From: Candidatus Woesearchaeota archaeon
GTDB taxonomy: Archaea > Nanobdellota > Nanobdellia > Woesearchaeales > JAZDKJ01
Direction of reading: 5' to 3'
DNA length: 64,000 nt
Assembly (NCBI GenBank): GCA_043803105.1
Contig: JAZDKJ010000006.1
Location: forward strand, 364,222-428,221
The notes beneath the pieces are model-generated. The model was given only the letters and a program-made list of their open reading frames with translations, was not told the DNA's origin and made no database searches. The translations under genes and the position numbers were made by a program. Shown here piece after piece: positions 8,205 through 58,884 of this stretch (positions are counted from its first letter, which is position 1; each line of letters begins with the position of its first letter).

Positions 8205-10154
8205 TTATTTCTGCGGTTCGCTCGATGTCCAGTCCTGCTTGCACATGTTGTCGATTGCAGAGTATGCAAAGCTGCCCAGAGTATAGTCGAGAAGTTTCCA
8301 TGTCAAATCTCCTGCCAGGGCCTTGTTTGCCTGCTGTTGGGCTTCCCTCTCTGCTATTGCTTTTTGCTCGGCAGGGTCATTGTATGCTCCTGCAGTCTTC
8401 GCACTCAACACACTGGCGTATACTATTCCATCCGTACCGAGCACTGTTTTTTCCCCACTTAGTGCTATCCTTTCAGACCTGATTGGCCCACCCTCATCAA
8501 ATGTGTACTCTGTAACCATGGCCCCTGCTTGTGCAATATAGGTGCTTGATATTGCTCGTGTTGGAGGTGGAAAACTTTGTGGTGTACACACAGTGGGAGG
8601 AAATCCCTGCTTGACATATGCACCGTAAGGATACTCACTGTTAGGTTCTTGGTATTGGTAGTCCTGTTGTGCAAAATAGACTTGGGTGAGTGTAGGATCC
8701 TGCGCAGCTTGGCTGGCGCTTATGTCTATGATATTTATATCCGGATATATTGTGCTTTTCCAGCAGTTGCAGTTTGTATTGAAATGGTAAGAACCTTCTG
8801 ATGCTATGCTTGATATCTTCCCGTTATACCCGTTTTGGGTTAGGTCAGTTTGGAGTGTAAGATAGCTCATCCCTGATTTTAGGAGAGGGGTGTTGCCCCC
8901 AGCCACAATATAGTAACTGTATTTACCTTCCTTGTCAGTTGCAGATTGGCTATCAATTTTGCTTATTATTATCTGCCCCTTGTTCCCGTCAAAAACAACC
9001 CCTGCCTTCACATCATCAACCGTAACTGAAGGTTTGACTACCTGTCCGTTCTTCGCTACCCCATCATACATTTTGTCTCCATTCTTGTCAACCAATCTGT
9101 AATTATAGGGCACGGGTCTTCCAGACAACCTGTTCTTTATGTCCTCAAAGTGCAGGTCAGTGCATGTTGGTTCATTAAAGCTCGTTGACATCCAGTTCCA
9201 TGACTCTGTTACCTGTGATATCATTCCAGGAATGTTGGTGAGCTCCATCAATTTCAATACGCATTTTGGTATGGCTGCCTGCTTGATGATTTCTCCCAGC
9301 TGGCTTGCAAGGTATTTTGCCAGGATTGACATAAGTATCTTAGCCACAGTCTTTAGTATAGAACCTTTCCAGTACATGCACAGCGCTTCATCTAGTTGTT
9401 TCTCGCATGCCTCTGTTGATATTCCTGCGGTGCACGCCTGTTCGATGCAGCAATTATACACCTGGTAGATTGTCTTGAGCTTTCTTATGTTAAATAGTAT
9501 TGCAACTGGGCACAGGCAGTAAGTTGCAGTGTAGATGTTCTCATAAGGATTCAGGTGGAAATCTCCGATAGCCAGGTTTCCGTACCCTCCGCCTGTTGTT
9601 GTCTTTCCAACTCCAACCGTGTTGCTCAGGCTTTCAGAGTTCTGTCCTAGCACCGGCACGTTCTTCACTATTCCTCCGCATCCAAACTTTCCTGTGCACC
9701 AGCCGCAGCTTACAAGACAGCACAATCCCTGCACTACCGGCAATTTGTACACGCTAGACCATGCCTTAAACACTTTTTGCATTGCTATGCAAAGTTTGGT
9801 GCCAGTGAGTAGTCCAAGCAGGCAGCAGTCCCCTGCCTCGTCTCCTGAGAACCCTATTAAGCTTGATATTGCCGATAGCACGATGTCTATGGCGCTCATT
9901 ACAGTGCATATCATGAGCATTATTGACGCTACGCTCTCAAGCGTTCCTATTACTCCATTGTCAAGCGAGTCAGCTATGCCTGAGCTTTTCTTGTGCTTCT
10001 CAATGCACTGCTGTCCAGCCTCAAGGTCTGTTGTGCCAGTTTCCTCTGTTGCCTTACCAGTAACTGGATTTACCTCTGCAAATGCGATTGAAGTGCAAAA
10101 TGGGATGCTGATTATGAGAAAGATTAGGATTTTGGCTACTTGCTGTTTTATCAT
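8205..10154 (-). CDS. Cys-rich secreted/membrane protein, hypothetical
   Basis: 649-aa ORF with an N-terminal signal peptide (ILIFLIISIPFCTSIAFA-EV). Several hydrophobic helices and clustered Cys (DCCLLG, GLCCLVSCGWCTGKFGCGG, YNCCIEQAC). I recognise no family. Confidence 0.6.
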   Translation of the reverse strand: MIKQQVAKILIFLIISIPFCTSIAFAEVNPVTGKATEETGTTDLEAGQQCIEKHKKSSGIADSLDNGVIGTLESVASIMLMICTVMSAIDIVLSAISSLIGFSGDEAGDCCLLGLLTGTKLCIAMQKVFKAWSSVYKLPVVQGLCCLVSCGWCTGKFGCGGIVKNVPVLGQNSESLSNTVGVGKTTTGGGYGNLAIGDFHLNPYENIYTATYCLCPVAILFNIRKLKTIYQVYNCCIEQACTAGISTEACEKQLDEALCMYWKGSILKTVAKILMSILAKYLASQLGEIIKQAAIPKCVLKLMELTNIPGMISQVTESWNWMSTSFNEPTCTDLHFEDIKNRLSGRPVPYNYRLVDKNGDKMYDGVAKNGQVVKPSVTVDDVKAGVVFDGNKGQIIISKIDSQSATDKEGKYSYYIVAGGNTPLLKSGMSYLTLQTDLTQNGYNGKISSIASEGSYHFNTNCNCWKSTIYPDINIIDISASQAAQDPTLTQVYFAQQDYQYQEPNSEYPYGAYVKQGFPPTVCTPQSFPPPTRAISSTYIAQAGAMVTEYTFDEGGPIRSERIALSGEKTVLGTDGIVYASVLSAKTAGAYNDPAEQKAIAEREAQQQANKALAGDLTWKLLDYTLGSFAYSAIDNMCKQDWTSSEPQK

Positions 10155-10156
10155 TT

Positions 10157-12328
10157 CTAACTTACCTCTGGCGCAACAAACTGTGAATAATCGTTAACTG
10201 TGTAATCTACCTGTTTTGTCTTGCCGTCGCAGTTATCATCGACAGTGATCTTTCCGCTTAGCCTGCTGCCATCAATGACTGTCTCAGTGATGCTGTTTAC
10301 CTCAAGGTTCTGGTCTGAGAGGAAATCCACCATGCAGTAGAATTTTATTTTGCTGCCCCTTAGGCTGGTTGCTTTCCATCCAAAGTTCCCGTTGCCAATT
10401 ATCCAAGGTCCTTCGTAGTTGGAATGCGTCAAGGGATTGTTGTCAAAGTCCACTGTCACTGTGTTGTCTCCTTCTTTATAGGTTGAGGGCTTTATGACCA
10501 CGTTGCCTTTGGCCAGCATTCCCACCCGATAGTTTCCGCTTCCTATTATCATGCTCTTCATTGTTGGGTATAGGACAGTAGGGTTTGCAGACGCCCCGTT
10601 TATTGATATTGTTATCTCGTCTTTTGGCCTTGGCTGGTAGCGTGTTTCCTGCAACATTTCTTCAGGTGTTTTTCCGCAGCTGCTTCGTAAATATCCATTT
10701 GTCAGATAATAGTTCTCCAGGAATTTTCTTGCAAGCACAAGCTCCACTTCAATGCTGTAATTCTTCAGTTTCTCCAGTTTGTATTCGCTTTTTACAGCAT
10801 CAACAATCGTGCTGTAACCTGCCTTCTGCAACTTAAGCTGGAGCCCTGCGCATTTCGGCAGCTTTAAGGAGGCTCTGCCGCTGGAGGCTGTCTCTCCTGC
10901 ATCGCATTCGTTGATTGTGTTGTTGCATTGGAATCTGACACCAACTCCAGGCAATAATCCTGTTTCATTCGTTGTGACTACACTAGCCTGCGTGCTTACG
11001 TTGTTGCAGTCAAAGACACTTTTCATGGTCTCGCTTCCGAAAAATGCTGTCAGGTTCACTTCGCTATATGGATTCTGTCCAGTGCACTGCCTGTTCTGGT
11101 TTCCGCACAGGAAGAGTTGCATCGGGAAATAAAACGAGAAGCCCTGTTTTTCCTGCACCAAATTACCAATAATCTTGGCAGAATCGCTGTCTGTGATTTT
11201 TATCACCACAGGATGTGTCAAGAAGTACTTGAACCTGTAATCATAAATGCAGAAGCTTGGGAGGAATGGTATGCTTGTCTGCGATTCCTTGTCCGGGCTA
11301 ATCACGTTGCCGCTTGTGGGTTTGATGTCAAATTTGTTATCTGATTGTGCAGGGTAACTGAATTCTACGCTTATTGAGCTAAGATTTTCGAAATAATTCC
11401 TGATAAAGCTGTCATAAACTCCCTGGACTGAAGCGTCGTTTGAAATCACTCTTTCAAACTTTGTTCCGGCCATCTTTAGGTATGGAAAATTTTTTGAAAG
11501 TATGCCTTCAAGATTTTCCTTGACTTCATCTTTCGTCCATGTTACGTATTTGCAATCTGTGCTTGAGTCAGAGAAGCTGAACGGCGGAAGGTCTTTTGCT
11601 CCCTTTTCTGCCCCGGTATAGCTGTACAGAGAAATCAGTGACTTTGCGTGGTCTTCAAGATAAGTGTCTGCAAACTCTCTTGTGACTAATTCCATAGCTA
11701 TCTCATGGATCAGCGCCAGGTTTACATCCACCTGATAATTGTAGTTGTCCACTTCATACTGTTTTTCGTTCTGTGTGATCTGGATTGGCCAGTGAAGATC
11801 AATTGTTGCCTGTTTGCCGAACCTCACTGTGGTGTTTATTGTTCCAGTCTTGATAACATAACTTTTTTTTCTGAAGACCTCAAAGTCCGTGCATCTCGGC
11901 AGGTTTTCTGTGATGTATCTAGCTAGCTCATTTTGCATGTAATCTGTTGAAGGTACAGAAATCGAATCTTCGGTGATCCAGTAAGGGACCTTGTTCTTTC
12001 CTGTGGCGTCAATAACCTGAATCATGCTCCCAGTTTTAACCACAGTCCTATCGCCGCTTATGCCTGTTGTTTGTAGCTCGGTAGGAATGTATATGAACCC
12101 CGCCTGAAGCCCAAGGATTTCTATTCCTGAATTTGCATAATCACTTAGACACTGTTCCACATATGTCTTAACCTGTTGAGCAGGCTCTGCAAGTTGTAAT
12201 GCCCTTACCTGTTCGACCTGGATTGGCTGCTCTGTTGTTCTTGCCCAGCTAAAGTAGAAGATTGCCGCAGCTATCAGCATGATTATTCCGATGATTATGA
12301 ATATGGTTATCTGTCCTCTTTTTTCCAT
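10157..12328 (-). CDS. large extracellular protein with class III (type IV pilin-like) signal peptide
   Basis: 723-aa ORF. The N-terminus MEKRGQITIFIIIGIIMLIAAAIFYF matches the archaeal prepilin pattern: basic residues, G-Q cleavage site, then a hydrophobic helix. The rest is unrecognised. Confidence 0.6.
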   Translation of the reverse strand: MEKRGQITIFIIIGIIMLIAAAIFYFSWARTTEQPIQVEQVRALQLAEPAQQVKTYVEQCLSDYANSGIEILGLQAGFIYIPTELQTTGISGDRTVVKTGSMIQVIDATGKNKVPYWITEDSISVPSTDYMQNELARYITENLPRCTDFEVFRKKSYVIKTGTINTTVRFGKQATIDLHWPIQITQNEKQYEVDNYNYQVDVNLALIHEIAMELVTREFADTYLEDHAKSLISLYSYTGAEKGAKDLPPFSFSDSSTDCKYVTWTKDEVKENLEGILSKNFPYLKMAGTKFERVISNDASVQGVYDSFIRNYFENLSSISVEFSYPAQSDNKFDIKPTSGNVISPDKESQTSIPFLPSFCIYDYRFKYFLTHPVVIKITDSDSAKIIGNLVQEKQGFSFYFPMQLFLCGNQNRQCTGQNPYSEVNLTAFFGSETMKSVFDCNNVSTQASVVTTNETGLLPGVGVRFQCNNTINECDAGETASSGRASLKLPKCAGLQLKLQKAGYSTIVDAVKSEYKLEKLKNYSIEVELVLARKFLENYYLTNGYLRSSCGKTPEEMLQETRYQPRPKDEITISINGASANPTVLYPTMKSMIIGSGNYRVGMLAKGNVVIKPSTYKEGDNTVTVDFDNNPLTHSNYEGPWIIGNGNFGWKATSLRGSKIKFYCMVDFLSDQNLEVNSITETVIDGSRLSGKITVDDNCDGKTKQVDYTVNDYSQFVAPEVS

Positions 12329-39855: not shown

Positions 39856-40989
39856 ATGGATAACAGAGCAAAATTTGAACTTATAACGAGAAATTTAGAA
39901 GAAGTACTAACACCTGCAGATTTAATGAAACTCATTGAAAATGATGAGCCTTTAAAGCATTATATTGGTTTTGAAATAAGTGGTAAGGTGCATCTTGGAA
40001 CTGGACTTATGTGTATGTCCAAAATTAAAGACTTCATGGATGCAGGTGCGGATGTTTCTGTGTTTCTTGCTGACTGGCATAGTTGGATTAATGATAAACT
40101 TGGTGGAGACAGAGAAGTTATCAAAAAAATTGCCGTCGGATATTTCAAAGAAGCGATGAAGGCTAGCCTTCTTTGTCTTGGTGGTAATCCTGAAAAAATA
40201 AGATTTGTACTTGGTACAGAACTTTATCACAATAATGACGATTATTGGGCAACCATGATTGATGTAAGTAAAAATACGACTCTAGGCAGGATGACTCGGA
40301 GCATTACAATCCTTGGAAGAAAAGAAGGGGAGGGAGTTGATTTTGCAAAATTGATCTATCCTGCAATGCAGGTTTCAGATATTTTTGTTCAGAAATTGAA
40401 CATACCTCATGCAGGAATTGATCAAAGGAAAGCGCAAGTTATTGCAAGAGAAGTTGCTTTAAAAATGAAAGTAAGTCAAATTACTGATAAAGAGGGTAAT
40501 AAAATTAAACCCGTTGCCCTGCATCATCATCTGTTACTAGGTCTTGGCAAACCCCCGGTATGGCCTGTTCCTCAAGATAAATTACAGGATTTATGGTCAT
40601 CAATGAAGATGAGCAAGTCCAAGCCGGACACTTGTGTTTTTGTTCACGATAGTCCTGATGAAATTAAAAGAAAGATTGCAAAGGCATTCTGCCCTGAAGG
40701 TGAAACTGTGTTCAATCCAGTACTTGATTGGGCTAAATATTTATTGTTCAGAGAGACGACTGATGAACTTATAGTAAAAAGGCCTGAAAAATTCGGTGGA
40801 ACTGTTATATATACAACTTACGAAAAACTTGAAAAAGATTTTGCAGACAAAAAAGTTCATCCAATGGACCTTAAAGATTCAGTTGCTGAAAGTTTAATTA
40901 AACTACTTGAACCTGCAAGAATCCATTTTGAAAAACCTGAAATCAAAAAGACGTTGGATCAGCTTAACAAGCTCATAACCACAAGGTGA
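39856..40989 (+). CDS. tyrS: tyrosyl-tRNA synthetase (archaeal type)
   Basis: 377-aa ORF, recalled as collinear with M. jannaschii TyrRS: IGFEISGKVHLGT, LADWHSWIN, IYPAMQVSD, KMSKS, RPEKFGG and HPMDLK. Markedly more A+T-rich than its neighbours. Confidence 0.9.
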   Translation: MDNRAKFELITRNLEEVLTPADLMKLIENDEPLKHYIGFEISGKVHLGTGLMCMSKIKDFMDAGADVSVFLADWHSWINDKLGGDREVIKKIAVGYFKEAMKASLLCLGGNPEKIRFVLGTELYHNNDDYWATMIDVSKNTTLGRMTRSITILGRKEGEGVDFAKLIYPAMQVSDIFVQKLNIPHAGIDQRKAQVIAREVALKMKVSQITDKEGNKIKPVALHHHLLLGLGKPPVWPVPQDKLQDLWSSMKMSKSKPDTCVFVHDSPDEIKRKIAKAFCPEGETVFNPVLDWAKYLLFRETTDELIVKRPEKFGGTVIYTTYEKLEKDFADKKVHPMDLKDSVAESLIKLLEPARIHFEKPEIKKTLDQLNKLITTR

Positions 40990-47550: not shown

Positions 47551-48504
47551 GTGTCTGATAAACTGTTGCTGATTGGTATGGGTTCGCCTAGTGATTTGAA
47601 GCATTTTGAAAAGCCTTATGCAAGCCTTGACGGCACCATCCCGGAATATCTCTTAAAAAAGGGTGTGAGACTATATTTGAGCCCTGGCACAGGAAAGCCT
47701 CTTGTTACCTCAATACATCGCACCACTGATACAGCAATGAAATTTGCAGATTCTCTTGATAGCTTGGTTGCTATAGAAGGAAGAAATGACAGGTTTGTTG
47801 CCTTATTGTTTGGCGGGCTTGCTTTTCATCTTGGTGGGGCTTTTGCTGGAAAGAATCCTGCAATACCGACGATTGTAGCTGCGATGGATGAGCATGCCTT
47901 CATGAGCGCCTATGCTATGCCTAAAGGAACTCCGGTTGGATTGGTTGGAGTCAACCAGCTTGACAAGGCTGTGATGATGGCAACTAAGATTCTTGACTAT
48001 AACGATTCTAACCGAGCATGGATCATACACCATCATTTCACCAATCCTCCATCGACTGATAGGGAGCATCTCGTAAAGTCTTCATATGATGCTGCCACTC
48101 AGCTTCTGCAAAAGTGCAATGTTTTGTCTTGGGCAGTTGAATTTATTTTTGTCGCGCAGAAGAAATATAAAGGTGTTTCATTAAGCCTGCCAGCGCTGCC
48201 ACAAACCGCAATAGAAATGGACAAGAGGTTAATTTTGGGTTCTGTTTCGTTTGTCAATCCTGCTGCGTTAAGTCCTTGCACCACAGGTCAGTATCAGACC
48301 CTCATGGATGTTGCTGGTCAGCTCAAGAACTCTTTGCTGGTCCATGACCCTTACAACGCAGCCCTTTTTACAATCCAGGTTATCGCAAACAAGTATCCAG
48401 ACTTACGTCTTGGGCTTGACAGGATAAAGGAAGAATCGAGGCTGCCGACTGCGAAGGGTGGGTATTCTCAGTTTTTGCCAATAAAAAAGGATGATTTCAA
48501 GTGA
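47551..48504 (+). CDS. purE: PurE-like (AIR carboxylase/mutase fold) protein, double length
   Basis: 317-aa ORF with a GTG start after an SD. Contains IGMGSPSD, TSIHRTTD, GGLAFHLGG and AMPKGTPVG, which are collinear with E. coli PurE motifs as recalled. The C-terminal half resembles a second, weaker PurE-like repeat. Confidence 0.6.
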   Translation: MSDKLLLIGMGSPSDLKHFEKPYASLDGTIPEYLLKKGVRLYLSPGTGKPLVTSIHRTTDTAMKFADSLDSLVAIEGRNDRFVALLFGGLAFHLGGAFAGKNPAIPTIVAAMDEHAFMSAYAMPKGTPVGLVGVNQLDKAVMMATKILDYNDSNRAWIIHHHFTNPPSTDREHLVKSSYDAATQLLQKCNVLSWAVEFIFVAQKKYKGVSLSLPALPQTAIEMDKRLILGSVSFVNPAALSPCTTGQYQTLMDVAGQLKNSLLVHDPYNAALFTIQVIANKYPDLRLGLDRIKEESRLPTAKGGYSQFLPIKKDDFK

Positions 48505-48515
48505 GGTGAAATAAC

Positions 48516-49796
48516 GTGGGCAGTACAAAAGATTTGGTTACTACAGGAAAGCTTGGTGAGCAATGGTATGCGCCTCCAACCGCTGTCAAGTTTGGTTATG
48601 GACCAATGCAGGTAAAAGGAACCTTCTCTGTGGCAGACTTAAAGAAGCTTATTCCTGAGTCTATCATAAAAAACAAGGCAGAAGCCCTTGCCATGCAGCA
48701 GGCAGCATTTGCAGAGTATCTGCAATATAATCACCCTGAGATCCCAAATTCCTATTATGGTATATTGGACAAAGATTTCAAACGTACTGACGTTCAGCAC
48801 TTGTTGTCTAAGGGAGAAACATCGAGCATCGTAGTCATGAAGCTTGCCCACACGCCAGATAGCTTTTGCGAAGGTAACCTTGATAAATATCGGGCTGCCC
48901 TGCAATCAGGAGAATTACAGTGCGGCGTTGCAGACGTGGAGTCAATCTTCAGGCTGGGCTTTCCGCTCGGCAGCTCGACTTTCGAGGATATTTTCAAGGC
49001 TGTCAGGTTAGGAGAAAAGTACGAGCATTTAGCCACTTACAATGAGACTGCGGCCGAACTCGACAAAATCAGGGCTATGGTTTCCGAGCAAGGTCTTGAC
49101 ATCTTCGAAGGTTTGGAGGAATTGCTTCAAAAAAAAGGCCTGGGCACCACTATTCCGAATCCAGGATTTGTCCTCAAGCATTTTGTTTATGATACAACCA
49201 CAAAATTCGTGAGTTACGGCGACCTTAAGATATCTGAGGAAGATGCTGAGAAACTTAGCGGCCTAAGCCATGAGAGTTATCAGCTCTGGAAGAATGACAT
49301 GTTCCCGAAGATTGCTGCTGCGCAGATAAAATTTTGCATGGAAAGGAACATATTCAATATTGATGGCAAGAGTGAAATCGTGGCATACCATCGCATGCCA
49401 GTTGTTGCCGACTTCCAATGCACTGTTGACGAAAACAGGGAAATGATAGTTGTGGCGGTTGACGGGGTTGAATGGCTGATTCCCAGCAATAAGGAAATAC
49501 AGCGGGCGATTTTCAGAAAAGAGGGAGTTTATGCAGCAAAGGCTGAGGCTTTAAGGCGGTCAGTAAAAGACAAAGGAGTCTTTGACCATTGGAAGGAGTA
49601 TTTTCCGGCTGTCATCAAGGAGCGAAAGATTGATTTGGTGGGTGTTACAGAATTCTCGTGTGATTTGATGGCAAATGCAATCATGGAAGTTGCCAACCGG
49701 ACTCTCGGCCATAGGGTGTTTGATGCAAAGCCGCTTGACTCGTGGGTTAGAGACTTTGTTCCTTATGCTAGTAAGTTACAAAGGCAAGGTGATTAA
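48516..49796 (+). CDS. purC: SAICAR-synthetase-like protein (divergent, long)
   Basis: 426-aa ORF with an N-terminal GSTKDL...FSVADL and a later IDGKSEIV...VADFQCTVDENR that resemble PurC motifs. Operon context. Confidence 0.5.
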   Translation: MGSTKDLVTTGKLGEQWYAPPTAVKFGYGPMQVKGTFSVADLKKLIPESIIKNKAEALAMQQAAFAEYLQYNHPEIPNSYYGILDKDFKRTDVQHLLSKGETSSIVVMKLAHTPDSFCEGNLDKYRAALQSGELQCGVADVESIFRLGFPLGSSTFEDIFKAVRLGEKYEHLATYNETAAELDKIRAMVSEQGLDIFEGLEELLQKKGLGTTIPNPGFVLKHFVYDTTTKFVSYGDLKISEEDAEKLSGLSHESYQLWKNDMFPKIAAAQIKFCMERNIFNIDGKSEIVAYHRMPVVADFQCTVDENREMIVVAVDGVEWLIPSNKEIQRAIFRKEGVYAAKAEALRRSVKDKGVFDHWKEYFPAVIKERKIDLVGVTEFSCDLMANAIMEVANRTLGHRVFDAKPLDSWVRDFVPYASKLQRQGD

Positions 49797-49798
49797 GA

Positions 49799-51751
49799 AT
49801 GGGGCATGTTTTGTTCGGTCGTTATCCAAGCAAGGAGATGAAGGAAATCATCGGTCCTCAACCCAAGGATTACAGGACGCTTTGCTCTCCTGATATGGAA
49901 AATATTTTCTCCAAGGAGTCAAAACATAATGGTTGGGATGACGTTTGGTATGCCCATATGAAAGCACAAAAAGAAACAGGCCTGCCAATACCGCAGGAGC
50001 ATTTGGATGCCTTCCAAGTTATTCTACACAAGATTAATTATCAACGCATGGATGAGATTGAACGAATCCTGAAGCATGATGTTGATTCTGGCAGGAAGCA
50101 TCGTGCTGAAGAATTGGAGAAGGTGTTGGAAGGCTCTTCCGCATGGCTGCATGCTGGTGCAACTAGCTGCACGGTCACAGATAATCAGGAGCTTACTGCA
50201 ATGTATAACGGCTTGCAGCTCTTGGCAGACAAAGGATACAATCTCCTTAACAAGCTTGAGCGTTTTGATTCTGGTCTGATTGTTAACCAGCACAAGTCAG
50301 ATCTAGAATATGCCTTGAATATATTAGACAGCAGGATCAACAACTTCAAGATAAGAGGTGCAAAAGGCACCACAGGCACCCAGGCAAGCTATCTCGAGCT
50401 GTTTGATGGCAATGCAGAAAAGGTCAGCGCTTTCGAACAAGCCTTCATCCAAAGACTTGGGTTTGGTAGGGCATTCACGATAACCGGTCAGACCTATCCA
50501 CGGATTGCGGATTACCAGCTCGTATCAACCTTGGGCGTGCTTGCGACTGCGCTTTCAAACATTGCAGAGTACTCAGTCAGCTTTTCCGAAGAATTAGCTC
50601 ATCCTTTGTCTGATGTGAAGAGCTTTGCAAAAAGCGCTGCGCACATGGCATCCAAGCAGTGGTTGGAGCGAACACTAGATGACTCTGCCCAGAGACGGAT
50701 TATCATCGAAGATTCCTTCAAGGCAGTTGAGTATGTTCTGGATAGGCTGAACTCTGCAGAAATTAACCCGATAGAGATAAGGGACCCTGACTTTCAGCTA
50801 AGCCAGCCATTGTCAGAAACGCTTGAAGGCACTACAGGCAAGGCTCTTGAGCTGTTGCGTGACAAGACTGTGAATACAATTTTCAGAATTCACACATTTG
50901 CAGAGAAGTTCAAGGACCAGCCTTGCATGGCATACACTCATTATCAGGTTGCCCAGCCTACAACTGTAGGCAAGCGGCTTGACCTTTGGGCCTATAATTA
51001 TGTTTTGGCACTTCAGGACATTGAAGACTTTTTGGAGTCTGACAAGAACCTTGAAGTAAGCCAGAATATTGTTGAATATCGCATCGCCACACTGTTAACA
51101 CAGATTGCGGTTGCTGCCCATAAGCAAGCCGCAGATGTCAGGTTGTGCCAGCATGACGGGATAATGACTGAGCCTTTTGCAATTGGCCAAAAAGGTTCAA
51201 GTGCTATGCCTCATAAGCGCAATCCTATGAAGAATGAGCGCATCTGTTCTCTATCTACAGAGTTGATTCAGTATGCTGATTCCAATAATGCCAACCCTTA
51301 TAGCTTTTTGCTAGCTGACTCAGTCTTGAATCTTGCAATGGCTGTTTTTGTTGAGGATACTCCTAAACAAAAGGGCTTTACTGTTAACCCAGAGGTTATT
51401 GCAAAGAATTTCAGGGAATTTCTGCCATATATCTGCCTAGAGCAACTGGTTAACAAAGTGCTCAAGACAGGAAAATACAAGCGCGAGGAGCTGTATGACA
51501 TCGCTTACAATTGCTCAATACAGGCCCGAACCAATGTCGAGGTACACGGCAAGGCAAACAACACGCTTGAATTAGTGTGCGAATACCCTCAATTTGGGCT
51601 CACTCCAGAAATGATTCCTGCGATGCTTGATCCTATGCTCTATATCGGTCTAGCGTCAAAACAGGTAGAATTGTTTGGAAGGGTGCATGTGGACCCCTTG
51701 AAAGAGAAGTACAAATCTGTTCAGGCGTTAGAGTCTGACGTGAAAGTTTAA
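49799..51751 (+). CDS. purB: adenylosuccinate lyase (long form)
   Basis: 650-aa ORF with an N-terminal RYPSKEM and the fumarate-lyase signature GSSAMPHKRNP. Confidence 0.8.
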   Translation: MGHVLFGRYPSKEMKEIIGPQPKDYRTLCSPDMENIFSKESKHNGWDDVWYAHMKAQKETGLPIPQEHLDAFQVILHKINYQRMDEIERILKHDVDSGRKHRAEELEKVLEGSSAWLHAGATSCTVTDNQELTAMYNGLQLLADKGYNLLNKLERFDSGLIVNQHKSDLEYALNILDSRINNFKIRGAKGTTGTQASYLELFDGNAEKVSAFEQAFIQRLGFGRAFTITGQTYPRIADYQLVSTLGVLATALSNIAEYSVSFSEELAHPLSDVKSFAKSAAHMASKQWLERTLDDSAQRRIIIEDSFKAVEYVLDRLNSAEINPIEIRDPDFQLSQPLSETLEGTTGKALELLRDKTVNTIFRIHTFAEKFKDQPCMAYTHYQVAQPTTVGKRLDLWAYNYVLALQDIEDFLESDKNLEVSQNIVEYRIATLLTQIAVAAHKQAADVRLCQHDGIMTEPFAIGQKGSSAMPHKRNPMKNERICSLSTELIQYADSNNANPYSFLLADSVLNLAMAVFVEDTPKQKGFTVNPEVIAKNFREFLPYICLEQLVNKVLKTGKYKREELYDIAYNCSIQARTNVEVHGKANNTLELVCEYPQFGLTPEMIPAMLDPMLYIGLASKQVELFGRVHVDPLKEKYKSVQALESDVKV

Positions 51752-54652: not shown

Positions 54653-55426
54653 ATGCAAAAAACTTTAATGGATGTTTTAAAAGATTTTCCCTATCTAGGG
54701 AGGTTTGTTCTTATAGGCGTTGACCTCACAGATACATTTAATTTTATAGCCTGTGGCATCCAGGGTCGAAGCCCGCCAAGTAGAGAAAGGTATTATGAAG
54801 AAAGCACTGACAGGAAGACTCTCTCTGTAAAACCTCTTGCGTATGACAAGATGGTCCGTGAATTCCAGGGAGGCAACCTTAGCGCCAATCCAGAACTTCT
54901 GTTATACAATGTGATAAAAGCTCACCTGACCGGCGTTGCAGTCAGCAACGGAAAACAGACTGATTCGATTGCTGACCTTATACAACCTGGCCAAAAGCCA
55001 AAATCCATTCTTGAAAGAGGCTTATCCAATTGGAGTTATGAATCTGATCCTCCAAATAACACTCCAAGAGTTAACGGGGTGGTGAATGATAATCAGGCAT
55101 GCTTGGCAATTCTGAAAAAGGACAAGGATGGATCACGATTGCCACTATATTTTAACGTCCCGATGACAAGAGGCAGAGGCATGTTACTCCCAACTTATAC
55201 AGGGGTTAATATGAATCCTCTTCCTTCGTTTCAAGGCGAGCCTCTGGAATTGGAGCTCACTGCCACAACCCCAACTGAGATGGTGCTTATGCTTTATGGT
55301 GCCTTAGTGCCACAGTCAGGAGATGATTTACGCGTTGCTGTCGGAGCAATGTTCCAGAACAGGATGGACTTTTCCACAATGCTCTACAGCAAGAGCCGTT
55401 ACGAAAAACCAGTCGAGGTGAAATAA
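54653..55426 (+). CDS. purO: IMP cyclohydrolase, archaeal PurO type
   Basis: 257-aa ORF with YLGRFVLIG...GRSPPSR...AVSNGKQTD...TPR, collinear with PurO as recalled. Confidence 0.7.
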   Translation: MQKTLMDVLKDFPYLGRFVLIGVDLTDTFNFIACGIQGRSPPSRERYYEESTDRKTLSVKPLAYDKMVREFQGGNLSANPELLLYNVIKAHLTGVAVSNGKQTDSIADLIQPGQKPKSILERGLSNWSYESDPPNNTPRVNGVVNDNQACLAILKKDKDGSRLPLYFNVPMTRGRGMLLPTYTGVNMNPLPSFQGEPLELELTATTPTEMVLMLYGALVPQSGDDLRVAVGAMFQNRMDFSTMLYSKSRYEKPVEVK

Positions 55427-55427
55427 G

Positions 55428-56891
55428 ATGGCAGCAATGCGAGAAGAGAAGCAGAAGTATTTCAACAGGATGCAGGATAATTTCCCGCAAGCACTCCTGG
55501 TTGGCTTCGCTGATTTGGATGCATCCAAAATACTGGCTGTCAACGTCTCACACCTCAACCAACATGGAGAAACCATAGAGACGACTCTCCAGCCATTAGC
55601 CTACCGCAAAGTGACTTGGACTCTTCCTAATGCAAAAGGTGAGTTGGAAGAGATGGGTTTGCGTTACGGAGACAATCCTGACCAAAAATCTGCTATGTTC
55701 AAATTAGTGGGAGGAAATCTTGCTCTTGCAGCCTGTAAGTTTGTTGGAGCAAATAACGGGCTTGTAAGTGCAATAACTGAGGCTGACATGATCCAAGCAG
55801 GTAAGCATCCAGGTAAAACAAACCTTACTGATGTGGATTCCGCGCTGAATATACTTAGGTATTTGGGTGAAAAACCGGCATGCGCTATAATGAAGCACAA
55901 CAATCCCTCCGGCTTAGCCTATGGAGGTTCTTCTGAAGTGACAGGTGCTGCCTTCGGGTCTGACGTCTCCGAAGCATACAGGAAGGCAAATGATGCTGAC
56001 AGGATAGCTGCTTTTGGTGGGGCTGCTGTTTTCAATAAGCCCATAGATACAGTCACAGCAGAAATGATTAATCGCAATTACCTGGAGGTGGTCTGTGCCC
56101 CGGACTTTGAAAGAGGTGCTGTTGAAATCCTTAAGGGTAGGAAGAACTTGAGAATAATTCGCTTGGACAATATCAATCGCCTAGAGAATTATTCAACCAC
56201 CCAGATTATTGATTTTAAGGCATTGATGGATGGTGGGTTCATAGTCCAGGAGTCCCAGGTGAATAAGGTTCGTTCATTGGCAGACCTGAAAAGAGCCAGT
56301 CACAAAGGTTATCAGACAGAACGGTGGCCCCCAGACCCCAACGAAGTTAGGGACATGATTTTTGGTGTGGCAGTAGAGTGTGGGGTTACATCAAACTCTG
56401 TCCTTTACGTTAAGGACGAAACAACAGTATCTGTTGGGACAGGTCAGCAGGACAGGCTTGATGTTACAGTCTATGCCATAGCTAAAGCGTATAGAAAGCG
56501 CCGTGACAGGGAATGTTTCAAAGAGTTTGGTATTCCCTATCCAGCGCTTGAAACAATGATATTTCACAAAGAGCAAGGCATAGACAGGGATTATGGAAGC
56601 ACTGCGGTCAATAACGCTAACCTGAACGGAGTTGGTATGCTAAGAGAGTGGAAAAAAGAGATAGATGCAAGAGTCAACAGTATACATGGTGGATTGATTG
56701 GCGCGACAAAGGTTTCAGACGCTTTCTTCCCTGAGCCTGACGCCATCGATTACTCGCTTATGGAATTCATTTCCGCAGTTGTGCATCCCGAAGGTTCGGA
56801 TAAGGATTGGGCTACCATTGATGCCTGCAATAAGGCTAAGCCGAGGCCAGTTATTGTGGCGCATACAACTCAGAGATTGTTCAAGCACTGA
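55428..56891 (+). CDS. purH: AICAR transformylase (PurH AICARFT domain only)
   Basis: 487-aa ORF with LRYGDNPDQ, MKHNNPSG and AAFGGAAVFN motifs. Confidence 0.85.
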   Translation: MAAMREEKQKYFNRMQDNFPQALLVGFADLDASKILAVNVSHLNQHGETIETTLQPLAYRKVTWTLPNAKGELEEMGLRYGDNPDQKSAMFKLVGGNLALAACKFVGANNGLVSAITEADMIQAGKHPGKTNLTDVDSALNILRYLGEKPACAIMKHNNPSGLAYGGSSEVTGAAFGSDVSEAYRKANDADRIAAFGGAAVFNKPIDTVTAEMINRNYLEVVCAPDFERGAVEILKGRKNLRIIRLDNINRLENYSTTQIIDFKALMDGGFIVQESQVNKVRSLADLKRASHKGYQTERWPPDPNEVRDMIFGVAVECGVTSNSVLYVKDETTVSVGTGQQDRLDVTVYAIAKAYRKRRDRECFKEFGIPYPALETMIFHKEQGIDRDYGSTAVNNANLNGVGMLREWKKEIDARVNSIHGGLIGATKVSDAFFPEPDAIDYSLMEFISAVVHPEGSDKDWATIDACNKAKPRPVIVAHTTQRLFKH

Positions 56892-56893
56892 GA

Positions 56894-57850
56894 ATGTTAA
56901 ACAACAAAACCCTCGAGTCAGCCCTGTCAATACTTGGCTCTCTTGGTCCAGGACCTGCCTGCCTTATCTATAATGATGGCATGCTCTCGAGTGCTGCATG
57001 CAGCATTTCTGCTGCTGACGCTTTCGAGAAGGCTCGTGATAGTTGCTGGACAGGAACCATTGCAGGCTCTGCATTCTTCAACAGGCCTCTGTGCTTGGAC
57101 ACAGCTAAAATGATTGAAGAGACTGATCTTCTTCAGGTGTACGCTCCTTCATTTGATGATAAGGCAGTGAAGGTTTTAGAGAAGAAGACGATGGTTCCAA
57201 TAAACCTCAATAAAGCGCCAAACACAATTCAACTAATTTGCTTGAATAAGCGGAATAGTCAGTTGCGCACTTCTTTTTCTGCTCAGCAAAATGATTTGTA
57301 CTTGGCCATTGCGTGCATGCAAGATACGCCATCCCGTGCCCTGGTATTAGCCAAGGAAAGCAAGACTGCCGCGATTGTTGCGTCTGAAACACTGGAGGAT
57401 TGTGCTTTGCTTGCGTTGAGGGACGCAGGGAGAAACTATAAGAACATGATTTGTTACAATGATTACCATCTCTCCTATGACTTTCTTGAAAGCAGCATCT
57501 CCTGCGTCGCCCTCAGAGTGATTACAGAGCCAGAGGCAATTGCCAAAATTGAGGATATACAAGCAAGGAGTAAGATCATTGGTGGTGCTGTTAAGGTAGA
57601 AAAGCTTAGTGTAATGGACACCATAAACAAGCTTGCCAATCAAGACAGGTCGGGTCTTAATTACGCTGTTGCAGTCACCAAATGCGAATTTGACATGGCC
57701 ACCCTTAGCTTTCTTGCTGACAAAGGCATAATTGCTGTGGCACAGCCAAGCCATAATCCTGAGATTGAAAAAGGATGCCGTAAATTAGACCTTACTTTGT
57801 TGCTCTATCACATTAATGAAAAGCCAAAATGCTGCGAGGTGCGAATATGA
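56894..57850 (+). CDS. AICARFT-like paralog lacking the KHxNPxG motif
   Basis: 318-aa ORF. AADAFEKARDSCWTGTIAGSAFFNRPLCLDTAKMIEE...VYAPSFDDKAVKVLEKK aligns with the PurH core, but the position of the KH.NP motif reads IYNDGML. Confidence 0.6.
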   Translation: MLNNKTLESALSILGSLGPGPACLIYNDGMLSSAACSISAADAFEKARDSCWTGTIAGSAFFNRPLCLDTAKMIEETDLLQVYAPSFDDKAVKVLEKKTMVPINLNKAPNTIQLICLNKRNSQLRTSFSAQQNDLYLAIACMQDTPSRALVLAKESKTAAIVASETLEDCALLALRDAGRNYKNMICYNDYHLSYDFLESSISCVALRVITEPEAIAKIEDIQARSKIIGGAVKVEKLSVMDTINKLANQDRSGLNYAVAVTKCEFDMATLSFLADKGIIAVAQPSHNPEIEKGCRKLDLTLLLYHINEKPKCCEVRI

Positions 57851-58884
57851 ATGATAAAAAAGAATTTATGACTTACAAAGGTTCAGGTGTGGATGTTGAA
57901 AAAGGTGAGGCTGTTGCAAAAAATCTGGAGGAAGAATTGGGCTCGACTCTTAACGACCATGTGGTTCCAGGAAAGTCTGGATTCAAGAGGTTTTGGAGGG
58001 ACGAAAATCATACTTATGTTGCAGGTGCTGACGGTGTTGGAACAAAGCTCAAGGTTGGATTCTTGCTAAAAAAGATTGACACTGTAGGCATAGACCTGGT
58101 TGCAATGTGCATTAACGATATTGTCAGGGTGGGTGCAGAGCCAATGTTCTTTCTTGATTATCTTGCTACCGGTAAATTGGATGAAGGTGACCATCTTAAG
58201 ATTGTCAGTGGAATCGTAGAAGGCTGCAGGCGTGCAGGGGTTCCTTTGCTGGGAGGCGAGACTGCTGAACTGCCAGGGTTCTACTCGCCTAAAGAATTTG
58301 ATCTTGCAGGTTTTGCAGTTGGCAGAGCGAAACACCAAGATCTGATTGACGGCACCAATATAAAGGTTGGGGCTGCGCTTTTAGGCATTGAGTCATCAGG
58401 CCTGCACAGCAATGGCTACTCTTTGGCGAGAAAGGTGCTTATGGAAAAGCTAGGCCTTGGAATGTTTGATTATGTGGCCAAGCTTAGGTGCACAGTTGGA
58501 CAAGAGCTGATAAGGTCAACCATCATCTACTCCAAGCCAGTTCTTGATCTACTGAGTCACTTTCCTGGCCAGGTTCAGGGAATGGCTCATGTTAGTGGAG
58601 GAGGTATGCCAAACAAGGTTCCAAAATGTTTTCCTGAAGGCTGCGGCGCAGTCATAAATGAGGGCAGCTGGCCTGTGCATCAGATTTTCTCGTACATTGC
58701 AGAGAACGGCCCAGTTGCACCTGAGGAAATGAGAAGGACCTTCAACATGGGTATTGGTATGGTTATGGTAATAAACGACAAGGGTGTGGTGCCAGAGATA
58801 TCTTCGCTTTTGTTGGAAAGCCACAAACTCAAGAGTTATGACATAGGCAACATTGTTGCTGGCAGAGGATTGCAGTATATCTAG
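57847..58884 (+). CDS. purM: phosphoribosylformylglycinamidine cyclo-ligase (AIR synthetase)
   Basis: ATG at 57847 after a GAGGTG SD, with an ATGA overlap with the previous gene. Contains YKGSGVDV, DGVGTKL and GGETAE motifs. Confidence 0.92.
   Translation: MNDKKEFMTYKGSGVDVEKGEAVAKNLEEELGSTLNDHVVPGKSGFKRFWRDENHTYVAGADGVGTKLKVGFLLKKIDTVGIDLVAMCINDIVRVGAEPMFFLDYLATGKLDEGDHLKIVSGIVEGCRRAGVPLLGGETAELPGFYSPKEFDLAGFAVGRAKHQDLIDGTNIKVGAALLGIESSGLHSNGYSLARKVLMEKLGLGMFDYVAKLRCTVGQELIRSTIIYSKPVLDLLSHFPGQVQGMAHVSGGGMPNKVPKCFPEGCGAVINEGSWPVHQIFSYIAENGPVAPEEMRRTFNMGIGMVMVINDKGVVPEISSLLLESHKLKSYDIGNIVAGRGLQYI

Follow-up and report, generated by a model that had tools for sequence, protein, structure and literature searches.

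A truncated, predicted non-catalytic paralogue of AICAR formyltransferase in the purine operon of a Woesearchaeota archaeon

The purV-X318-purM region

We analysed a 64-kb stretch of DNA (the window) from a 542,637-bp contig which NCBI places, together with the PurV and X318 proteins, in a Candidatus Woesearchaeota metagenome-assembled genome (MAG). The window carries a purine biosynthesis operon where purV, a gene for 5-aminoimidazole-4-carboxamide ribonucleotide (AICAR) formyltransferase (AICARFT), is directly followed by X318, a gene for a 318-residue protein, and then by purM (Table 1). A first-pass annotation had described X318 as a tandem AICARFT paralogue that has lost the KHxNP motif and had proposed for it either a regulatory or structural role as a pseudo-enzyme subunit or a changed chemistry, such as the replacement of a missing formyl-transfer step. 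The comparisons presented here indicate that X318 is almost certainly a dead derivative of purV, and they bear on whether it is still maintained as a protein.

The gene that precedes X318 proved to be a canonical AICARFT-only purH, as annotated. PurV contains the LRYGDNPDQ and MKHNNPSG motifs, shares approximately 50% identity across 99% of its length with the members of a large family of bacterial short PurH proteins (421-430 residues), and can be aligned over its full extent to the AICARFT domain of ATIC from birds (avian) and humans. It also keeps 119 of the 142 family columns with at least 95% conservation (84%), including K156-H157 and the C-terminal QRLFKH. Of the two paralogues, purV is the active one, and X318 was presumably duplicated from it. 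The pairing of purO and purV in place of a bifunctional purH has already been described in archaea and bacteria (PMC6486802), and the adjacency of the two genes recurs in L081, a syntenic archaeal relative of the window, and in two further loci (L085 and L087). The best 80 GTDB matches of purV are all bacterial (Nitrospirota and Desulfobacterota/Thermodesulfobacteriota), with identities of at most 53%, and the sole purV closer than these is that of L081 (57% identity), which suggests that purV entered this DPANN lineage through an old bacteria-to-archaea transfer. Compared with the bacterial family and L081, the window purV has lineage-specific insertions of approximately 26 residues near the N-terminus and 20 residues in the long loop before SDAFFPE. 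A third, 11-residue insertion, GLAYGGSSEVT, directly follows the catalytic KHNNPS and is missing from X318.

X318 is tightly packed between its neighbours. Its start lies 2 nt behind the purV stop, and its own TGA (57848-57850) overlaps the in-frame purM ATG at 57847 as ATGA, a -4 nt junction, in agreement with the operon arrangement noted in the first-pass annotation. The junctions read CACTGAG followed by AATG (purV-X318) and TGCGAG followed by GTGCGAATATG (X318-purM). The X318 frame contains no stop, whereas the two remaining forward frames have 16 and 34 and the three reverse frames 8, 13 and 14, and the in-frame codon-usage score (0.179) is close to those of the other operon genes (0.19-0.32), with strongly negative off-frame scores. 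X318 is therefore not a chance open reading frame (ORF), and its coding signature is real. GC content, GC content at third codon positions (GC3) and codon usage agree with those of the neighbouring genes, and the NCBI annotation calls the same ORF (MFH0978502.1).

A scan of the operon starts for Shine-Dalgarno (SD) sequences identified GAGGT(G)- or AGGTGAT-type motifs 5-7 nt upstream of purD, the purE-like and purC-like genes, purB, purA, purO, purV and purM, and only a weak GTGA at the guaB start. The first genes of the adjoining units, encoding the NOG1 GTPase, L21e and DUF655, start without an SD motif, consistent with leaderless or otherwise initiated first cistrons. A search for internal X318 starts preceded by an SD motif gave none that was convincing. 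A purV-X318 fusion by -1 frameshifting was considered and rejected, given that the upstream frame is open for only 18 codons and contains no slippery heptamer, and that purV stops at the natural C-terminus of its family. Two ORFs that overlap the region, one antisense (135 aa, 57347-57754) and one of 91 aa (56698-56973), had no family match. PADLOC gave no match, and no metal-binding Cys motif could be read from the X318 sequence despite its 13 Cys.

Homology and fold of X318

Profile and pairwise comparisons place X318 as a real, very remote homologue of the AICARFT domain, and its description as a paralogue of the adjacent gene was confirmed. The protein matches Pfam PF01808 with 30.9 bits (cut-off 25), with residues 10-161 on profile positions 123-294 of 311, and purV by BLASTP with 25% identity and E=1e-14. 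Against the short-PurH family profile, hhalign gives a probability of 97.9% and E=6.7e-13, aligning residues 4-303 with positions 117-430 of 441. X318 is colinear with purV residues ~131-487, and no similarity between the two genes is left at the DNA level. The scores remain far below the equivalog cut-offs of TIGR00355 (35.9 against 528 bits), NF002049 (26.4 against 402 bits) and NF005492 (14.2 against 415 bits). Scans against Pfam and NCBIfam retrieved AICARFT/PurH models only, with nothing to Formyl_trans_N or ATP-grasp, and the best phmmer match among PDB sequences had E=0.5. When taken alone, residues 106-318 are still colinear with profile positions 285-430 in hhalign (P=0.003), and the C-terminal part alone (216 residues) has no Pfam match.

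Structure prediction with AlphaFold2 from the single X318 sequence gave a mean predicted local distance difference test score (pLDDT) of 34. When provided with an alignment of real PurH sequences, by which the model is steered, it reached a pLDDT of 74 and a predicted TM-score (pTM) of 0.71. Foldseek matched this alignment-guided model to ATIC/PurH structures only (E~1e-8, query-normalised TM-score 0.53-0.62). The confidence is unevenly distributed, with pLDDT values of 70-95 at residues 1-110, below 50 at residues 112-128, and low at residues 130-240.

Loss of the functional motifs

The first-pass annotation had pointed to CLIYNDGML in the place of the KH.NP motif. BLASTP, MAFFT and hhalign all set this segment opposite AIMKHNNPSG, with no Lys-His nearby, and because these three independent alignments agree, the catalytic Lys-His is truly absent and not present at a shifted position, which answers the pairwise and profile alignment check that had been suggested. 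The Lys-His, R-x-F-x-H and RYGxNPxQ motifs were mapped to human and avian ATIC by alignment. In AICARFT the Lys-His pair (human K266/H267) is catalytic, and PurH/ATIC is an obligate dimer with its AICARFT active sites at the dimer interface (PMC9525906). Dimerisation is required for AICARFT activity (PMC10912719).

The losses go far beyond KHxNP. X318 starts at the equivalent of purV residue ~131 and is thus devoid of the first ~135 residues of purV, including GKHPGK and RYGxNPxQ, the latter of which we take, from ATIC structures, to be the AICAR phosphate site. Upstream of the X318 start its frame closes after 18 codons, overlapping the 3' end of purV. An internal family segment of ~20-30 residues (DFKxLxDGGxxVQ) has been deleted. 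Further conserved blocks are replaced, and one of them, the C-terminal R-x-F-x-H, which presumably contributes to the site of the neighbouring subunit in ATIC structures, is gone (Table 1). Overall, X318 keeps 38 of the 142 highly conserved family columns (27%). The central segment that had been reported as retained is indeed present as FNRPL and APSFDDKAVKVLEKK, with TIAGS in the place of AAFGG.

Since the N-terminus, the Lys-His pair and all six other conserved blocks are lost, we firmly predict that X318 is not an AICAR formyltransferase and would be unable to formylate AICAR. It belongs to the PF01808 superfamily by score, yet by every functional feature it falls outside the AICAR formyltransferases, and pseudo-enzyme, one of the labels put forward in the first-pass annotation, describes it best in view of the lost catalytic Lys-His. 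An independent case of a KH-less AICARFT homologue is P0007, a PurH-like protein of 455 aa on a Logan contig of 2,345 bp, which reads PACVISNRGIPCGAA at the KHxNP position and keeps YGENRHQ.

Distribution among relatives

Searches with X318 retrieved itself only among 5.8 billion clusters. When 1.84 billion representatives were searched exhaustively with HMMER, X318 again retrieved itself, accompanied only by generic PurH matches of at most 55 bits and by two repeat proteins. A scan of JGI metagenomes with X318 and a scan of GTDB genomes with PurO returned nothing. The true relatives of the locus were found by a PurM search, and the closest of them, L081 (a 17-kb contig from SRR12594517), is syntenic with the window. 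It carries purA, a purE-like gene, purB, purO, purV and purM on the plus strand, with purQ and purL next to them on the minus strand; beyond these come the eight genes that also lie 3' of purM in the window (NOG1, M29 peptidase, L21e, Rpo4, DUF655, a small ORF, HAD and DUF1844). The 12 proteins shared by both loci (those of purA, purO, purV and purM plus the eight downstream) are 31-82% identical, with a range of 51-82% for nine housekeeping or enzyme genes among them and values of 57% for purV and 67% for purM.

In L081, GGTGATTTAG separates the purV stop from the purM ATG; this 10-nt spacer holds the purM SD (GGTGA). X318 is absent and has no match in L081 beyond purV itself, and comparison of the junctions therefore indicates that X318 occupies exactly the position of the SD spacer. 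An X318-like ORF is likewise absent from L085 (purO-purV-purB), from L087 and from seven further loci with a related purM, and a second AICARFT-like gene is missing from all 80 of the bacterial purV loci, the apparent case in L050 being a frameshift split. The first-pass annotation had asked for conservation of the gene pair in related genomes and had named absence or decay of the gene in close relatives as grounds for refuting its proposal; absence is what the closest relative and the other loci show. Given the absence from L081 and from all other relatives and bacterial purV loci, X318 is a lineage-specific, fast-evolving and truncated purV duplicate and not a conserved component of the pathway, and a single gain in the lineage of the window is the most parsimonious history.

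In L058, a deltaproteobacterial MAG, the same end of the gene has undergone a small partial duplication: a fragment of 39 residues (8334-8537) lies ~1 kb downstream of an intact purV and matches the purV C-terminus (profile positions 391-429, 53 bits). The two syntenic loci also differ by rearrangements: the window has guaB-purA between purB and purO and no purL or purQ beside purM, whereas in L081 the cluster begins with purA, and purQ-purL separate purM from NOG1 and are encoded on the opposite strand.

Constraint on the X318 sequence

To weigh a decaying duplicate against a maintained protein, the sequence was compared with simulated drift. When the purV segment drifted neutrally to 25% identity it accumulated ~15 stops, with a minimum of 6, and 0 of 300 runs were stop-free, as X318 is. 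Composition was compared with drift that avoids stops: Lys, Glu and Asp together make up 18.9% of X318, against 12.8±1.5% in the simulations, and Arg, Ser, His, Trp and Pro 16.4%, against 24.6±2.2%, with 0 of 300 simulations reaching the X318 value in either case. This departure also holds for residues 106-318 alone.

The conserved positions behave differently according to their character. In residues 1-105, hydrophobic positions are kept at 16 of 25 sites and polar ones at 1 of 18 (Fisher p=1e-4), and the gap between hydrophobic and polar retention over the whole protein was reproduced by none of 400 stop-avoiding drift runs. This pattern reads as the signature of a protein whose synthesis, and whose folding at least in the first subdomain, are under selection, and that has been freed or driven away from the parental chemistry.

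The purine operon and its surroundings

The archaeal origin of the window is marked by split RNA polymerase B'/B'' and A' genes, aIF5B, aRF1, L21e, Rpo4 and DUF655. Its purine operon covers nine steps, namely purD, purM, the purE-like and purC-like genes, purB, purV and purO, together with purA and guaB, and is followed, 3' of purM, by the gene for a NOG1-type GTPase. The coordinates of the operon genes and of the X318 features, and the blocks that are replaced in X318, are given in Table 1.

Table 1. Features of the purine operon and of X318 (HMM, hidden Markov model; IMP, inosine monophosphate; AIR, aminoimidazole ribonucleotide).
Feature	Position	Strand	Description or basis
purD	from 46207	+	operon member
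purE-like	47551-48504	+	317 aa
purC-like	48516-49796	+	426 aa; very weak similarity
purB	49799-51751	+	650 aa
guaB	from 51751	+	operon member
purA	from 53231	+	operon member
purO	54653-55426	+	archaeal-type IMP cyclohydrolase, directly 5' of purV; Pfam PF07826, 98.3 bits
purV	55428-56891	+	AICARFT-only purH, 487 aa; PF01808, 183 bits
purV-X318 junction	56889-56896	+	purV TGA 56889-56891, 2 nt, X318 ATG 56894-56896; no Shine-Dalgarno motif
X318	56894-57850	+	N-terminally truncated AICARFT-domain paralogue, 318 aa, predicted catalytically dead; homology, coding signature
X318 residues 4-105	56903-57208	+	robustly homologous block; holds all significant HMM and BLAST signal
CLIYNDGML	56960-56986	+	aligned to A-I-M-K-H-N-N-P-S-G; 2-4 residues shorter, varying with the alignment; no Lys-His
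X318 residues 106-318	57209-57847	+	strongly degenerate remainder; colinear with the C-terminal half of purV including the long loop and the ...AVAQP... strand
purM Shine-Dalgarno GAGGTG	57836-57841	+	inside the last X318 codons; 5 nt upstream of the purM ATG
purM	57847-58884	+	AIR synthetase, 345 aa; TIGR00878, 346 bits; NCBI protein starts at the same ATG
AAFGG, TIAGS in X318			MAFFT alignment
SNS, SRA in X318			MAFFT alignment
GTGEQDR (G-x-G-[EQ]-Q-x-R), VASETLE in X318			MAFFT alignment
SDAFFPF, TKCEFDM in X318			MAFFT alignment
PGGSxRD, QPSHNPE in X318			MAFFT alignment
C-terminal QRxFKH (R-x-F-x-H), absent from X318			MAFFT alignment; X318 counterpart reads ...EKPKCCEVRI

Several of the other enzymes of the operon are unusually divergent. 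The purE-like protein has an AIRC match of 47.5 bits and a C-terminal extension of ~160 aa, the similarity of the purC-like protein to PurC is faint (about 30 bits against cut-offs above 180), and PurB exceeds its usual size by about 200 aa. The counterparts in L081 are a protein of 283 aa with a faint AIRC match and a PurB of 533 aa, so that the divergence of these genes looks like a lineage trait and not like decay. With its bacterial-type purV and these divergent enzymes, the surrounding operon may be more useful than X318 itself. Elsewhere in the window, the class I Trp/Tyr-tRNA synthetase gene (39856-40989) is a composition outlier, with a GC3 of 0.27 against 0.40-0.54 in the other scored genes, and may be foreign. 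Two adjacent large ORFs on the minus strand, 8205-10154 (649 aa) and 10157-12328 (723 aa), have no Pfam match, and the first of them has the second highest Cys content in the window (3.7%), behind X318.

Interpretation of X318

On the evidence of the sequence, the balance tips moderately towards X318 being a duplicate of purV that is non-catalytic and nevertheless maintained, that is, a pseudoenzyme. It would have originated by a tandem partial duplication of purV residues ~131-487 that landed in the purV-purM spacer, followed by very fast divergence to about 24% identity, in which the N-terminal AICAR-phosphate-binding segment, the Lys-His pair and every other substrate or folate motif would have been lost. 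Lacking its own ribosome-binding site, X318 would most likely depend on termination-reinitiation at the purV stop, which lies 2 nt upstream, and its translation would probably be weaker than that of the rest of the operon. The surviving product would be a non-catalytic remnant of the AICARFT fold under protein-level selection, as suggested by the open frame, the composition typical of soluble proteins and the preserved hydrophobic core of ~105 residues.

Duplicates of such dimeric enzymes commonly keep affinity for their parent, and this, together with the location of the active sites at the dimer interface, where both subunits contribute residues, makes PurV the most plausible partner, with which X318 may associate as a modulating or stabilising subunit. 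A PurV:X318 heterodimer would be expected to be catalytically poor, given that X318 is devoid both of the "cis" residues (KH, RYG) and of those that a partner would have to provide (the C-terminal R-x-F-x-H). Any effect would then be regulatory or structural, with no added activity. We regard specific binding to PurV as possible, albeit doubtful. A further-reaching proposal, in which X318 is a newly born functional pseudoenzyme that tunes the last folate-dependent purine step within a PurV heteromer or another complex, or that links purine status to another process, as PurH does in Methanosarcina acetivorans, appears improbable. If true, it would provide a snapshot of an obligate homodimer gaining a catalytically dead paralogue for its regulation, in a DPANN archaeon with a reduced genome. 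A functional X318 would be the first catalytically dead AICARFT-fold paralogue that we found described, within a limited literature search, and a clean case of a pseudoenzyme being born when part of the gene for a dimeric enzyme is duplicated in tandem within a compact archaeal operon.

Several observations weigh against a maintained protein, and most of them favour its principal competitor, according to which X318 is a functionless leftover, a partial duplicate heading to loss whose ORF is kept open through operon translation; we consider this account unlikely, though a serious contender. X318 is a singleton, known from one MAG contig only and absent from L081 and all other purV loci. It is the sole operon gene without any SD-like motif in the scan of operon starts, which is hard to reconcile with a stoichiometric subunit. 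All functional motifs are lost and the fold is truncated; without the N-terminal ~135 residues and the internal segment of ~20-30 residues, a native-like dimer interface may not form. The C-terminal 213 residues (106-318) keep conserved hydrophobic and polar positions equally poorly (7 of 28 and 8 of 35), with no excess in the core, and the AlphaFold2 model of the C-terminal two thirds has moderate confidence and is steered by the alignment. The Cys content (4.1%, compared with 1.3% across the proteins of the window and about 3-4% in a random sequence) equals or exceeds what drift would give, a hint of relaxed constraint. The source and timing of the duplication are poorly anchored: X318 scores equally, at ~60 bits each, with the window purV, the L081 purV and a bacterial purV, and shares 1 of 10 clade-specific, 3 of 15 window-specific and 0 of 11 L081-specific derived states. 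Under the leftover account, premature stops or a product prone to aggregate would carry a mild cost, for example by leaving untranslated mRNA exposed, by yielding toxic fragments or by disturbing the expression of purM. However, purM has a strong SD of its own, so that the need for an open upstream frame is weak and selection for read-through alone is not compelling. Neutral drift to the divergence of X318 would have left ~15 stops, the composition is protein-like even in the degenerate part, where no drift simulation out of 300 reaches it, and the core of residues 1-105 has been selectively kept (p=1e-4). DPANN genomes are compact and seldom retain ~1 kb of junk, which we also count against a leftover.

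The remaining explanations have little in their favour. A new, PurV-independent and non-catalytic role of the AICARFT fold, for example in sensing a ligand, in scaffolding purine enzymes or as a factor linked to translation, would by analogy be in line with the protein-level constraint without catalytic residues, with co-transcription with the purine genes, and with the presence of PDB 9ou7 chain DA (M. acetivorans PurH, 50S dimer) among the fold matches of X318. We rate it as very unlikely, since M. acetivorans uses an intact bifunctional PurH, whose N-terminal IMP cyclohydrolase (IMPCH) domain, missing from X318, mediates the dimerisation, the nucleotide- and folate-binding motifs are all lost, and a new conserved motif cannot be defined from a singleton. 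The other proposal of the first-pass annotation, an enzyme of altered chemistry that supplies a missing formyl-transfer step such as that of glycinamide ribonucleotide (GAR) transformylase (PurN/PurT), could draw on the position of X318 inside the pur operon and on the absence of purN, purT and purP from the window; this absence says little, given that the window represents 64 kb of a 542-kb contig. The proposal has essentially no backing and we give it only a marginal chance: every conserved polar, catalytic or ligand block is gone, with 1 of 18 polar positions kept even in the best block, no new catalytic-looking motif is evident, X318 resembles neither Formyl_trans_N nor ATP-grasp proteins nor any further Pfam family, ordinary purN genes occur in the pur clusters of four related archaea (L082, L087, L088 and L089), and the syntenic L081 manages without X318. 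Even less credible is an artefact, whether a chimeric join in the assembly or an ORF mis-called in the annotation. A single MAG contig with no second observation would allow for it, but both junctions are clean and operon-like (2 nt; ATGA), composition and codon usage fit the neighbouring genes, NCBI annotates the same ORF, and X318 is homologous to the adjoining purV and not to foreign DNA.

Whichever account is preferred, the locus calls for caution in annotation. A PF01808 match above the gathering score is no ground for naming X318 a purH or an "IMP cyclohydrolase", and it should not be entered as a second AICARFT when pathways are reconstructed.

Comparison with known systems

The closest known system is the PurV family itself (short PurH, 390-430 aa, PF01808, NF005492), with which X318 shares a predicted homologous fold, colinear with residues ~131-487, and the long loop between GxGQxxR and SDAFFPF that is common to the family and to eukaryotic ATIC. 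X318 likewise resides in a pur operon beside purO and purV. It differs from the family in the loss of the N-terminus, the Lys-His pair and the conserved blocks, and it is not a functional member.

The ribosome dimerization factor of M. acetivorans, in which PurH2:aEF2_2 dimerises 50S subunits (PDB 9OU7; PMC12605026), is an archaeal AICARFT-fold protein in a non-catalytic use. That protein is an intact, catalytically competent bifunctional PurH with its N-terminal domain, which X318 lacks, and nothing ties X318 to ribosomes, so by analogy this precedent is a lead only.

Pseudoenzyme paralogues that arise by tandem duplication of oligomeric enzymes are known to persist as non-catalytic partners that are conserved across taxa and for which binding has been demonstrated. 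X318 resembles them in adjoining its active parent, in having lost the catalytic residues while keeping a predicted core of the fold, and in its tight co-transcribed junctions; it differs from them in being a singleton without a ribosome-binding site that is absent from its closest relative.

The best structural matches of the predicted X318 model are the bifunctional PurH/ATIC enzymes (human 1P4R/1PKX, avian 1G8M, M. tuberculosis 3ZZM and T. maritima 1ZCZ). In contrast to them, X318 has no IMPCH (MGS-like) domain and no catalytic residues, and its transformylase domain is truncated. It is because these parent enzymes are obligate dimers with active sites at the interface that an interaction between X318 and PurV is proposed.

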